A stretch of DNA of 64,000 bases, from positions 337,094,001-337,158,000 of the forward strand of contig OZ024741.1 of assembly GCA_964016885.1 (NCBI GenBank), written 5' to 3'. Numbering within the stretch: position 1 is the stretch's first letter; every line of letters begins with the position of its first letter. Both the position numbers and the translations under genes were made by a program. Below the pieces are notes generated by a model, which saw only the letters and a program-made list of their open reading frames with translations, was not told the DNA's origin and did no database searches. Positions 11,249 to 58,088 of the stretch are shown piece after piece. Source of the stretch: Eledone cirrhosa (Eukaryota).

Positions 11249-11811
11249 ATTAGGATTGGTGCTCTGAAATAGCGATGTATACATGAATGTATGTATAGTA
11301 TATTTTTCCATATATCATGTTTAATTAAAAACATTTTGAAGATCATACCCTATCGGTTTTAAAGTAGTGACTATGTCACTTACTTCTTACTAATTATAGA
11401 CGCTGGATTCTTATAGAATTCCAGTAATAATCAGGAGCTGATTATATAGAGCGATTGGCGGTCCAGCAAAAATTAGGTATTAGGATTGGTGCTCTGAAAT
11501 AGTGATGTATACATCAATGTATGTATAGTATATTTGGCTCCTGATTAATACTGGAATTCTATATGAATCCAGCTTCTATAATTTTCGGCGGAAGCAGGGG
11601 GTGCATGGCTCTGGTGATCGCCAAACAGCGTGAAACAGACTGTTAGCTTCTCTCCCTTCTTTCACCAAAAAGAAGTAAGTGACATAGTCATTACTTTAAA
11701 ACCGATAGCGTATGGTCTTCAAAATGTTTTTAATTAAACATACGGTATATTGCCAAATATACTATACATACATTCATGTATACATCGCTATTTCAGAGCA
11801 CTAATCCTAAT
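11249..11811. mobile_element. Fold-back element with nested inverted and direct repeats and a hammerhead-like motif
   Basis: Outer IR 11249-11388/11670-11811, inner IR 11392-11438/11537-11583, direct repeat 11479-11535 of 11249-11305, TA flanks. A related stub lies at ~19535-19625. Confidence 0.8.
11607..11648 (+). ncRNA. Type I hammerhead-like motif with variant core (CUGGUGA)
   Basis: GGCT-CTGGTGA-tCGCcaaacaGCGt-GAAA-CAGaCTG-TT-AGCT. All three stems pair, and stem I can extend (gaag..ggggg / tctct..cttc). Confidence 0.6.
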
Positions 11812-12554
11812 ACACATATGCACATATATATAGAGAGAGAAAAAGAGAGTAAGGGAAAGAGGAGAGAATTATTGAGTGACTAAATGATGGATAAATACAA
11901 AGATATATATATACATAGCCACATAATAATTGTTTCTACTTTTGGCACAAGGCCAGCAATTACCCAGTGCATTACTGGTACTTTATTTTATCAACCACAT
12001 AATAATATAAACATATGTAAATATAGTTAGCTATTTGAAAATCTGGGTATTAAAAAAATGAATTTTATATTAAGTTAATCATAATTTCTATTGAGAGGTA
12101 AGTGAATATATTTTGTTAATATTCCTAAGTAAATTAATATGAAATGGTGGCTTCAGTATCTTCTCATGTCATCCTCAGGATAATAGTTTTCTGTGAATAT
12201 ACATTAACACTTTTGATACCAAACCACCTGAAGCCACCCTTGGTTCTATGATACAAAATATTTTATTTTAATGTGTTCACTTTTATCTGAAAGCTTTCCA
12301 TCATAATTTTATGTAAGAACGTTTGTTAAGCTATGTTCCAAACCACCTGAAACTATCCTTGGTACTATGATACAAAATGGTTTACTCTAAAGTGTTTACT
12401 TTTATATGAAAACCTTCCATCATAATTTTATGTAACAACCTTTATTAAGCTATGTTCTAAACCACTTGAAACTACCTTTGGTTCTAAGATATAAAATGGT
12501 TTATTTTTATTTAAAAACCTTCCATCATTCTTTTGTACCCTTCTATCATTATTG

Positions 12555-12740
12555 GGGGATTGGCAGTATTGGTAGAAGGTCGGACACCATGCTTTGCAGC
12601 ATAGAGTTAGGCCCCTTTATGATCTGAGTTCAAATCCCACTGAGGTTCACTTTGCCTTTCATCCTTACGGGGTCGATAAAATAAAGTACCAGTAATGTAC
12701 TGGGATAATTGCTGGCCTTGTGCCAAAAGTAGAAACAATT
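12555..12740 (+). mobile_element. SINE family 1
   Basis: Same A/B boxes and 3' end as 8500-8682. Confidence 0.9.
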
Positions 12741-14271
12741 ATTTTATGTAATAACCCACATGAAACCACACTTTTTTCTGTGATGCAAAATGGTTTATTT
12801 TAAAGTGTTTACTTTTATCTAAAAACCTTCCAAATGTTGCATCATAGGTAAGTGTCATTTACCATAGCTTTAGATCTATCTATGCCTTGCGAGTAGAATT
12901 GGGTGATTGGAAAGTGTTTAGAATTTTATCGGATAGACTGTACCAGTAATTCAAAGAGCCTGCCTTATTATTCTGAAATCTCCCAGAGAATTATGTTAAA
13001 GGTACATGTATCTACAGAATGCTCAGCCACTTGCACATTGCTTTCATGATCAGACCAATAATGATGATGGCACACACACATATAACTTTTACAAAGTTAG
13101 TAACGTCTGTCAAGGACAAATAACTTTCTGTATGAAAAATATATACATATATATCATATATATATATATACACACTCATATATATATATATATATATATA
13201 TATATATATTTATATATATATATGTACACACACATAAAAATATATACATATATATACATACATTAAATACTTGTTACACCATATGCATTTTCTACTTATA
13301 TTTCCAATGCTTGTGTTATGTGTGAAGTTCACCTTTGCAGTATTCCTCCAATGACATTTTTATGATAACATTTTACAGCTGGATGCTCAATTTCTCCCAT
13401 CTACTGTGACAATTATACCATAATTTGCTGCAATGATGACCAAAAGAGCAATTTTCAGACTAAAAATGCGAAATGAAATGATATTTATTTGCTTTAACAC
13501 AAGAATAGATTTTTTTTTGTTTAATGTGCTTTGTTTTTTTGCATTTATATTTGTTTTCAACCTATCACCTTTAAAGTGTGGTTAGACACTTTTGTTAATT
13601 AACACTTTTTAGATGTAGAGGAAAATATATTGTTTCAATCTAGAGCTAAATGGACATTTCGTTTGTGTGTGTATGTGTGTGATAATAGCATAGAAAAATG
13701 AATGCATGATGATGATACACACACAGATATATATCATCATCATCCTCATCATCGTTTAACGTCTATTTTCCATGCCAGCATGATATATATGTATATAAAA
13801 TGTCAATAAGAAAAAGAAAGTCCACAGAAGATTAATACAATACAACGATGATATATATTAGTTTAGCGTTTGATATAATAAGAAAAGAGTCTTAATATTT
13901 TGGATGTCAATCCTTCTTCGGGAGATTCATGAAAATAAGAAAAAAATGAAAACAGTGCCTCATGTAAGATGGCTCAAACATGACAATCTTACAGGGGACA
14001 CTGGGGGATTTCTGTCATAACACCTGCATGACTACTTTACAGAATGAACTGGGTGCTTTTTCTCATGTCAACAACATGACCGCCTTTCGCAATGGACTTG
14101 ATGCTTCTTCTCATAGCATTAGTCTGACCACCTACCAATGTAAAATGATGATGATGATGATTAGGAATATGATTAAGAACAGTTGCAAATCAAAATACAT
14201 TGTATATTTGTCACAGCCATATTTGGGAGTAAAGCAGGGACCAAATTATCCAATGTGTTCTTCCCTATTTG

Positions 14272-55822: not shown

Positions 55823-55869
55823 CATGTATATATATACATATACATATACATATATACACATACATATAT

Positions 55870-57643
55870 GAATTTGTTTGGCGAGGTTTTTGATATGAAA
55901 TCGTGTGTCGAAACAAATATTGTTATAATTGGGGAGGGTCATATTGTTATAATAATATTGCCAGAATTAATAACAGAACTCACTCACTGTTTGCTTGGTT
56001 TTCGCTTCTTTATCTTTTATATCAGTTAATTTATTCGGTCCTCAATGTTTACCATTGACTGACCAACGGTAAAAAATACAGATATAATATAGACACAAAC
56101 ACATATATATAGTCTAACAAAGTTCTTTCGTTGCACATCTGCAACATCGTCAGTGGTGGTATTATGTTTCCTCCTGTTGTATTGTATGTCTCCGCCATCT
56201 TTTTTGAATCTGTTTATTTATTTATTTATTTTTGTCTTCTTCATTGCGCATGCGTTTGCGTGTGTGTATCTCCACTCACACTACGCTAAACCCATGGCCT
56301 CCAAATACCTGATACTCAAAAAACTCAGCAATGTCCAGTAGTGCTAAGTTTAATATTCTGATCGCAGACTTGGTACGAGTGATGAAGAACGTGTCCCGCA
56401 TGTGCGACCCAACAGAAATGGAAAGACACATCCAACACTTCATCAACTGCATGCAGTTCTCTGGCTACAACCAAAGGGACAGAATCAGAGTATACGGAGG
56501 AGCCACGGAGAAGTATAAGACCCTCATAGAACTAGACATGAAAGGAATTTTCCCATTATACAGGAGCAAATCATGGAATAGCTTAGATAGGACTAAACAT
56601 AAGATAGTGAAATCCACCTCATGGTACGACAACCAAAGATACCAGAGTGTCATGTTTGTGGACGCTACCCCTGGAGGGAAATTAGCTAACCAGTGTAGAA
56701 AGGCCCTGAGAAAGACCCACGTAAAGATTAAGGTGGTAGAAAAGCCAGGAACCACCATAAAATCCCTGATCAGCAAAACATACCCTTTTAAGAAAACCCA
56801 CTCTACTAATAGGAAATATATTATATGTAAAGTAAACCCCCGGATAAACTGTAAAACTAGAAACGTAGTCTATAGCATAAGATGTACAGAGGGTACTTGC
56901 AGAAACATGACAACAACATACATAGGCGAGACACCTCGTAGCATAGGTGAAAGGATAGACTAACGCTGGGGGGAACTAAAAGGATGAAAAAACGATTCAG
57001 TACTATACGAACACGCCAGACAATAACATGACGGTAAGATAGACAACAGAAATTAAAATAATATCTAAACATAGAAATGACCCAGCAGACAGGTAAATCA
57101 GAGAGGCCACTGAAATAGAACTTAGAAGGCCAAATCTAAATACAAAAAATGAATGGAATAACAACACCCAAACAAACAATACTGACCTAAGAGAAATATA
57201 AATAAATAAATATATATACACACAAAAATAACAATAAACACATATAAACACACACTAGTAAACTAAGATAGAATACAATAACCAAAACACAGTCACCCAA
57301 ACGCGAACACACATCAAACCTATACACACACGCAAACGCATGCGCAGAGAAGAAGACAAAAATAAATAAATAAACAGATTAAATAAAAATGGCGTAGACA
57401 TACAATACAACAGGAGGAAGCATAATACCACCACTGACGATGTTGCAGATGTGCAACGAAAGAACTTTGTTAGACTATATATGTTTGTGTCTATATTATA
57501 TCTGTATTTTTGACCGTTGGTCAGTCAATGGTAAACATTGAGGACCAAATAAATTAACTGATATAAAAGATACAGAAGCGAAAACCAAGCAAACAGTGAG
57601 TGTGTTCTGTTATTAATTCTGGAATATTATTATAACAACATAT
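55870..57643 (+). mobile_element. 5'-truncated Penelope-like retroelement with an inverted copy of its 3' end; decayed RT C-terminus + GIY-YIG
   Basis: 56270-57160 translates (with frameshifts and stops) to YAKPMASKYLILK-NSAMS...MQFSGY...FVDATPGGKL...KVVEKPG...CKTRNVVYSIRC...YIGETPRSIGERI...R*IREATEIE...LNTKNEW. ~325-bp inverted repeats at 55941-56269 and 57322-57643, with TA-rich flanks. Confidence 0.9.
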
Positions 57644-57653
57644 ACATATATAT

Positions 57654-58088
57654 ATGACGTATTATCTTCGTGTTTTTCGTTCATTGCCAGAGAACGTCTC
57701 TATGAACCACCTAATAGAATGTTATTCTATACGTGGTTTTGTCTTTGCGTGTAATTATTTTTCACCGCTCTAAATAATTGTTTCTACTTTAGGCACAAGG
57801 CCAGCAATTACCCAGTGCATTACTGGTACTTTATTTTATCGACCCCGTAAGGATAAAAGGCAAAGTCACCGCTCTAAATAATGACGTATTATATTCGTTT
57901 TTTTTCGTTCTTTGCCAGAGAACGTTTCCACGAACCAAAGTATCATCTTCCTGTCTTCCTCCGGTTGCAACGTTTTTTGAAATATTCACTTCTGCGTTCA
58001 CAGATTGACTTTGTTAGTTTCAGAAGATCCCGTTAAGGGTGAAAGTAGCGATTCTTTGCTTCAACTTTAATCTGTTATTTTAATAAAT
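57654..58088 (+). mobile_element. PLE-end-like insert with a short direct repeat, decayed hammerhead and nested SINE
   Basis: 57654-57709 is repeated at 57881-57937. Motif cagaaga-tCCCgttaaGGGt-GAAA at 58021-58044. Confidence 0.55.
57779..57865 (-). mobile_element. 5'-truncated SINE family 1 with 17-bp TSD
   Basis: TSD tcaccgctctaaataat at 57762-57778 and 57866-57882. Confidence 0.9.

Follow-up and report, generated by a model that had tools for sequence, protein, structure and literature searches.

We investigated a 64,000-nucleotide stretch of the Eledone cirrhosa genome (GenBank assembly GCA_964016885.1, contig OZ024741.1, positions 337,094,001 to 337,158,000; hereafter the window), in which a preliminary description, made from the sequence alone, had noticed about ten inserts with inverted arms lying in (TA)n microsatellites. 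The inserts are real and occur genome-wide: within (TA)n, 3' ends from several families of Penelope-like elements (PLEs), truncated on the 5' side, are joined head to head in pairs. The elements present two fixed 3' ends, one distal and one internal, and a pair nearly always carries one of each, with inner junctions that vary, TA tracts on the outer sides and arms that link to PLE open reading frames (ORFs). The extension of one arm, which had been noted as frequent, is present and turns out to be a rule, each pair as a rule combining a distal with an internal start.

With the microsatellites of the window masked (32% GC, rich in TA tracts), the inverted-repeat structure was recovered at all 11 named inserts, with arm identities of 74-100% (Table 1). 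TA-type tracts adjoin both sides of 10 of the 11, the tail described below being counted in, the exception being the insert at 25893, whose right arm holds a short interspersed element (SINE). The 11 inserts correspond to 10 repeat families (A-D and F-K); 15355 and 21537 both belong to family A. By type, they comprise five 3' ends of endonuclease-bearing PLEs (three Hydra-type, two Neptune-type), one retrozyme-like unit and four families without an ORF found.

All families exhibit both fixed 3' ends, and the tail between these ends measures about 25-170 nt. Pairing was determined for family A with an arm anchor, in chromosome order, 70 matches less 4 reciprocal duplicates giving 66 distinct loci; 30 loci biased to the window junction were left out of this tally and of the arm-length tally below. 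An adjacent inverted partner was present at 33 of the 66 loci, and these pairs comprised 28 tail/no-tail, 2 tail/tail and 0 none/none combinations, with 3 unresolved, compared to about 15 mixed, 8.5 tail/tail and 6.5 none/none expected from independent choice (P about 1e-6). A tail-anchored sample of the same family (n = 30) contained 18 mixed and 0 tail/tail pairs. Families B, C, F, G, H, J and K pooled gave 71 mixed, 2 tail/tail and 3 none/none pairs, 20 being unclassified and 3 of the H pairs being duplicates. Families F and G, never used as queries, were mixed in 32 of 34 classified pairs.

The genome-wide control consisted of 80 random 10-kb stretches taken at round coordinates of the 3.0-Gb genome, of which 79 (790 kb) were used. 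The satellite locus L167, 10 kb of AT-rich satellite with inverted symmetry inside, contributed 28 of 198 collapsed inverted-repeat rows and was dropped. A fold-back was called tight at a gap of at most 60, a TA tract was (TA)4 or longer, and contact was an end within 12 nt of a tract. By these definitions, 37 of the 63 tight fold-backs contacted a TA tract, versus about 8% expected, so that the claimed position in or beside (TA)n holds beyond the window; among 1145 direct-repeat rows, only 70 ended at a distance of 10 nt or less from a TA tract. At 29 of the 37 TA-contacting fold-backs the opposite end lies 30-120 nt short of the next tract, an offset that is the mark of a one-sided tail. The orientation of the arms, with the 3' ends of the elements outward, was also borne out: exact hammerhead cores pointed outward in 14 and inward in 0 of 71 TA-anchored inverted repeats, versus 1 outward and 3 inward in the remaining 99.

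A strict hammerhead descriptor detected 104 motifs in the 790 kb, compared to 15-21 in 8 shuffles, with 48 of 79 loci positive and a TA tract within 250 nt downstream of 80 of the 104 motifs. Restricted to the window, the same comparison shows a weak excess (7 motifs versus 0-4 in 30 shuffles; a first descriptor gave 4 versus 0-1 in 20 shuffles). Rough extrapolation leads to about 140,000 tight TA-anchored fold-backs in the genome, from the 37 seen, and to about 300,000 hammerhead-like motifs, from the excess of ~87, which together would be a large unannotated source of hairpins and possibly of double-stranded RNA. One random stretch (L151) contained 11 tandem copies of a single hammerhead motif, from a further family.

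The nature of the elements was determined from the ORFs into which the arms continue. Family A is abundant (2943 exact genomic matches of a tail 32-mer, 3984 of an arm 30-mer) and is found in full length at locus L331 as a unit of ~2.58 kb in which pseudo-long terminal repeats (pLTRs) and ORF form a pLTR-ORF-pLTR tandem; at L324, L331, L332 and L344 the upstream pLTR and tail continue into the 5' region of the ORF. The family A protein presents RWR, DKT, CxCx5C, CxxC..E and CxH motifs, kept in 104-120 of 120 aligned homologues. The Hydra clade is defined by such motifs, namely RWK, DKT, a CxCx5C linker, CxxC and CxH, without CCHH (PMC8557442), and the family A protein resembles the published Hydra proteins when compared by eye. 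The endonuclease-side Hydra motifs also occur in families C and G, both linked to Hydra-type ORFs, and in a separate ORF fragment at 54150. Judged by these motifs, A, C and G are assigned to Hydra-type PLEs. Families B and I are linked to ORFs with a Cx4CxxC linker, CCHH and, at the C-terminus, a GIY-YIG domain, seen in relatives of B (L262, L274, with a DKSG motif) and in copies of I (L392, L399, L400) and partly mutated in the window copy; their motifs point to the Neptune type. A single ORF with reverse transcriptase (RT) and GIY-YIG is complete in family A and partial in B, C, G and I. As elements, they are unremarkable representatives of established clades.

The RT C-terminus and GIY-YIG reported at 55870-57643 correspond to a real ORF, which is truncated, broken by stops and not recognised by Pfam. 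PLE ORFs reached at best sub-threshold Pfam scores, the 54150 fragment matching PF01541 with an E value of 0.0037, below the cut-off, and a PDB sequence search with the family A profile returned nothing meaningful. A long Asn/Ser/Thr-rich insert separates RT from linker in 54150-55010, alike in L261 and in family C, and recalls the N-rich inserts carried by rotifer Penelopes (PMC3846280). No ORF was found for F, H, J and K in the loci examined, and none for D. In family D, the 30 loci of 30 (from the best 40) are built of a 315-nt unit, with at most 57 nt uncovered, in partial tandem and inverted arrangement without an ORF, and its sequence organisation matches the description of a non-LTR retrozyme. 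The claim of several (TA)n-targeting PLE or retrozyme-like families is upheld for PLEs A, B, C, G and I and for the retrozyme-like D, while the other four families have no ORF tie. None of the three outcomes named beforehand as contradicting the preliminary interpretation was observed.

The 3' flanks are TA or CT-TA in nearly all listed copies. TA is also present at the 5' junction in 8 of 17 short solo copies, which identifies the TA tract as target and not as tail. In family I the tail is visible at 3 of 20 loci; in the window copy (53946-54003) an own TA tract lies between the internal end and the tail, and can for that reason serve as target for more insertions. At the family A distal end (e.g. 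L063, L067, L069), (CT)n comes next to the CCTCT variant on its 3' side in 5 of 9 cases and to the CCACT variant in 0 of 67, a candidate case of microsatellite birth or of RT slippage with the element end as its seed.

Seven of the ten families (A, B, C, D, G, I, J) carry convincing hammerhead motifs, compared to the at least five announced; in F and H the motif is doubtful. Neither hammerhead nor ORF was found in family K, covering nine short stretches, earlier matches and the window copy at 18096. All features of the type I fold (CUGANGA or its U3:A8 variant, GAAA, stems I and II, a palindromic or short stem III, NUH) are present in A, C, D, G and J; stem I is weak in B and I, and the motif is incomplete in F and H. 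The core is canonical in A, C, D and J and of the U3:A8 variant, already reported (PMC4209133), in G and I, and a palindromic stem III occurs in A, C, H, I and J. By these sequence features the arm motifs of A, C, D, G and J are type I (minimal) hammerheads, their self-cleavage being putative. Rfam, which had been proposed as a check, did not bear them out: its hammerhead models gave no match at threshold in the arms, with none for family A or B and one sub-threshold HH9 match for D (E 0.13, 15.2 bits versus a gathering score of 52). Scanning of the whole window showed no hammerhead among the best 150 of 341 matches, mostly microsatellite matches to miRNA models. Minimum-free-energy folds of the monomers are mostly unlike the active hammerhead fold (z 0.1 to -2.3). 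A solo type I hammerhead-like motif with a palindromic stem III lies near TA tracts at 760-830 (core 773), and no second copy of its family was found in the loci examined.

Arm lengths were compared in 47 mixed pairs, after removal of 5 overlapping loci. In 26 of them the tailed arm exceeded the other; in 10 the two were equal to within 3 nt (2.6 equal 5' ends expected, P 1e-4); and in 11 the tailed arm was the shorter, the tail-less one extending as much as 1.4 kb farther upstream. Two tailed arms consisted of the tail only. Since a tail-less arm offers no template for a tail, both arms came from RNA in the tail-less-longer and tail-only cases, some of which later central deletions could account for. 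The two arms had 18 non-consensus variants in common in 28 pairs, compared to 4.6 after permutation, and a private deletion is common to both arms of a tail/tail pair at L295. The shared variants and the equal ends fit a single template. Inner junctions vary from copy to copy, with an overlap of 1-6 nt in 21 of 47, of 13 and 23 nt in two more, or with short inserts.

An initiator-like site, located at the hammerhead or close to it, forms the centre of the fold. This refines the position near the centre first described for the hammerhead, the cleavage site not being the centre. Of 98 arm starts, 44 lie at -61 to -105, 9 at -31 to -45 and 5 at -106 to -300, a distribution clustering just upstream of, or within, the hammerhead; a fold centre at the cleavage site was rejected on the 9 starts at -31 to -45 versus the 44 at -61 to -105. 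The initiator consensus is YYANWYY. In family G 48 of 50 copies, in family A 65 of 82 and in family C 20 of 26 stop within about 20 nt of a motif of this type, and the modal stop in all three families is the A of the motif. Penelope carries a promoter and initiator inside its pLTR (PMC2377424). A GCGCATGCGC-type palindrome, a candidate promoter element, occurs in the pLTRs of both A and B, which are unrelated; its position in A is ~55 nt upstream of the inferred start.

The near-constant pairing of a long with a short end makes it likely that both target strands are primed on a single element RNA. The protein of a lizard PLE, Poseidon_Ac, nicks and extends both strands, with two internal starts that bound the tail; it is predicted to be a dimer and uses uncleaved RNA as template, ribozyme cleavage not being needed (PMC11167929). 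From these in vitro results together with the pairing data we infer asymmetric twin priming on one RNA, mini fold-backs arising by run-off at the transcript 5' end, an explanation that we regard as probable. Priming from both sides of the target, already suggested in the preliminary description, fits the pairing and arm data. In a single event, the protein of the element would nick the TA tract on each strand, and two complementary DNAs (cDNAs) would be primed on a shared RNA, one from the distal start and the other from the internal start. In 9 of 10 families, the internal start agrees with the TA phase over 2-4 nt, and at each start the nicked TA ends may base-pair with UA/UAU over 2-4 bases. 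The distal polymerase would copy the tail and then displace the other cDNA or halt at its origin. From starts in the 5' pLTR copy both cDNAs would run off the RNA 5' end at the initiator near the hammerhead, yielding mini fold-backs of 100-350 bp, while starts in the 3' copy would give the long ORF-bearing arms; the two cDNA ends may then be joined via microhomology or short fill-in. The hammerhead would be a passenger in the products and not the fold point, and family D is probably a non-autonomous retrozyme that the same PLE machinery mobilises. In a stronger form, to which we give slightly less than even weight, asymmetric twin priming would be obligatory: a dimer on one RNA with two dedicated starts would produce tail, inverted arm and mini fold-back in one reaction, run-off would be the source of some 100,000 hairpins with hammerheads in this genome, as an order of magnitude, and retrozymes would ride the same reaction instead of a rolling-circle route of their own.

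Several observations weigh against priming on one RNA. The shared variants and equal ends also fit two RNAs of one source locus, or conversion from arm to arm. The tailed arm is longer in 26 of the 47 pairs, as predicted by a model in which the cDNA snaps back, and central deletions could yield some of the 11 opposite cases. An adjacent partner is lacking in 33 of 66 family A copies, and family D is less clean (19 mixed, 8 tail/tail and 2 none/none, tandem copies being counted repeatedly). Transcription would start at the pile-up of arm ends judging from the motif and the pile-up only; part of the family A peak comes from the junction-biased sample, and the extra-G cap signature is explained by the partner arm in 7 of the 14 G cases of that family. 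Families F, H, J and K have no ORF link. In the lizard PLE study, a difference in start site between the strands was not seen, nor was homology to the target (PMC11167929).

Among the alternatives, two RNAs, one per subunit, each primed on one strand and maybe joined by the palindromic stem III, could be used by an asymmetric complex that sets the distal and internal starts. The palindromic stem III, a form thought to need a dimer (PMC4209133), speaks for this arrangement; two templates make it simple to obtain the same region in both arms and account for either arm being longer. Nevertheless, tail-only arms ending at the start of the other arm (L062, L345; near-cases L210, L048) and shared private variants are easier to obtain on one RNA, the strict asymmetry is left without reason, and no hammerhead was found in family K, whose design is the same. 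We consider two RNAs unlikely, while giving them more weight than any other rival. A somewhat smaller chance is given to snap-back, in which the distally primed cDNA folds back and is copied to a hairpin that the endonuclease resolves at the internal site, close to published ideas of self-priming and endonuclease resolution (PMC3846280, PMC8557442). It explains the single tail, the identical arms, the centres at short palindromes and the lengths of most pairs, including the excess of equal ends (10 of 47). However, it cannot yield the 11 tail-less-longer pairs or the tail-only partners, tail-less solo copies (11 of 66 in family A) show that the internal site primes alone, and both sites are RT starts in vitro (PMC11167929).

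The inverted ends and TA flanks would also suit miniature inverted-repeat transposable elements or fold-back DNA transposons with terminal inverted repeats at TA, but the ends are asymmetric, the inner junctions vary, half of the copies are solo and arms run into PLE ORFs, so that this origin is highly improbable overall. It is refuted for A, B, C, G and I, which have PLE ORF continuity, fixed symmetric termini and a constant interior being absent; the earlier expectation that the arms are not transposon termini with fixed ends therefore stands. Palindromes beside microsatellites are hard to assemble, and the inserts could be artefacts of assembly or library (chimeric fold-back reads), but the arms differ by 0-30%, the ends obey family-specific rules and pairs recur in segmental duplicates, and we give this explanation next to no credence. 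Asymmetric twin priming on one RNA is thus the reading retained.

The features of the window are collected in Table 1. A twelfth fold-back, at 19972, had been missed in the preliminary description; by eye, its core resembles a family met 6 times in the random sample. Additionally, the window contains abundant SINE-like repeats (e.g. 9157-9639 and 25997-26182, one such repeat forming a 202-bp tandem), tRNA-like heads (15996-16085, 31343-31400), and an assembly gap of 200 N (46640-46839) within a long TA/CA-rich array.

Table 1 PLE-related and retrozyme-like features of the window (core, hammerhead core position with strand; the name of an insert follows in brackets where it differs from the first position).
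Feature	Positions	Strand	Arms (identity)	Tail, core and remarks
Family D, partial tandem and inverted arm of 315-nt ORF-less unit	11249..11809	none	11253-11388 / 11670-11807 (93%)	core 11611 (+), mutated in this copy
Family A (Hydra-type PLE) fold-back	15355..15576	none	within 15424-15576 (93%)	left arm with 65-nt tail (15355-15423), right arm tail-less; cores 15489 (-) and 15511 (+)
Family K fold-back (18096)	18040..18277	none	within 18099-18277 (75%)	left-arm tail 18040-18098; neither hammerhead nor ORF found
Twelfth fold-back	19972..20162	none		decayed core 20038 (+)
Family A fold-back (21537)	21535..21738	none	within 21537-21673 (94%)	tail-less left arm, core 21604 (-); right arm begins within core; tail 21674-21738
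Family C (Hydra-type) fold-back	25200..25641	none	within 25300-25635 (99%)	left-arm tail ~95 nt; cores 25391 (-) and 25544 (+), mutated, one private mutation common to both
Family F fold-back (25893)	25862..25996	none	within 25899-25996 (88%)	shortened left tail; SINE breaks right arm; non-canonical core half 25941
Family B solo tail-less copy	31834..32143	+		core 31915
Family J fold-back	35115..35497	none	35201-35284 / 35424-35493 (75%)	left-arm tail ~80 nt; canonical type I hammerhead 35314 (-)
Family H fold-back	52439..52753	none	within 52441-52580 (74%)	right-arm tail ~170 nt; degenerate hammerhead half 52511
Family I (Neptune-type) (53671)	53673..54003	none	53675-53701 / 53917-53943 (100%)	left arm inverted, 27 nt; U3:A8 hammerhead variant 53715 (+) in sense arm, then internal TA tract, then 36-nt tail
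Family G (Hydra-type) short fold-back (54039)	54040..54148	none	within 54096-54147 (96%)	left-arm tail; too short for hammerhead core
Separate Hydra-type ORF fragment	54150..55010	+		5'-truncated; CxCx5C linker, GIY-YIG, Asn-rich insert
Family B (Neptune-type) insertion	55870..57645	none	55948-56269 / 57322-57634 (91%)	inverted tailed arm 55870-56269; sense arm 56270-57645 tail-less; cores 56153 (-) and 57434 (+)
Family B ORF, RT thumb and GIY-YIG	56270..57190	+		5'-truncated, broken by stops
Family F solo tail-less copy	57655..58086	+		SINE piece inside; core variant 58021

The architecture of the inserts is already described for PLEs and is a known landing pattern: the published accounts report an inverted 5'-truncated partner, a tail that is often one-sided, hammerheads in pLTRs, (TA)n targeting, and dual opposite-strand hammerheads 100-700 bp apart (PMC8557442, PMC3846280, PMC4209133). 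The origin of the tandem and inverted units and of the tails is named there as an open question (PMC8557442), and the steps after priming were left unvalidated in the lizard PLE study (PMC11167929). In the literature covered, with subscription papers and some supplements outside it, no statement was found of a one-of-each rule, of run-off at the initiator or of PLE twin priming. Apparently new, as not found in print, are the two fixed ends with one-of-each pairing, the private variants shared by the arms and the short arms mostly stopping at the initiator-like site. They provide a quantified constraint on the unsettled mechanism of PLE integration, and the one-of-each rule, the tail-only partners and the run-off ends yield sharp predictions for the existing in vitro system.

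Families A, C and G and the 54150 fragment share with the Hydra clade (PMC8557442) a length below 3 kb, a single ORF, RWK-like, DKT, CxCx5C, CxxC and CxH motifs without CCHH, a pLTR hammerhead and insertion at (TA)n. They differ from the published description in that many families coexist here, tails are 65-95 nt compared to the published 30-40, and mini fold-backs predominate. The Neptune clade is recognised by a CX2-5CxxC linker and CCHH accompanying a C-terminal endonuclease. Families B and I resemble it in the C-terminal GIY-YIG, the Cx4CxxC linker, CCHH and the pLTR hammerhead, whereas the TA tract in its own 3' end and the U3:A8 core set family I apart. Head-to-head inversion and a tail at one end are shared with the PLE insertion unit (PMC8557442, PMC3846280, PMC2377424), in which, however, the tail is described as optional or often one-sided, in contrast to the near-strict one-of-each pairing found here. 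With Poseidon_Ac the inserts have in common the two start sites and the extension of both strands (PMC11167929). In the passages covered, these four papers do not state an initiator-like run-off or a TA pairing of 2-4 nt.

In LINE-1 twin priming, the second target strand primes internally on the same RNA, which leads to an inversion. The inserts differ from it in the constant position of the internal site and in that one region is usually represented by two copies, which results in a palindrome.

Non-LTR retrozymes are described as non-coding 150-450-nt units in tandem, each with a type I hammerhead (PMC7229834), and the phylogeny of a 2026 preprint argues that retrozymes are non-autonomous PLEs (bioRxiv 10.64898/2026.07.22.740005). 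Family D resembles the retrozymes of these reports in its ~315-nt ORF-less unit, partial tandems, type I hammerhead and strong self-pairing, and differs from them in bearing a PLE integration signature, with two fixed ends, an inverted partner and a TA target. This signature gives direct structural support, at the level of sequence organisation, to a PLE-driven mobilisation of retrozymes, and family D would thereby tie retrozymes to the PLE machinery through integration itself.

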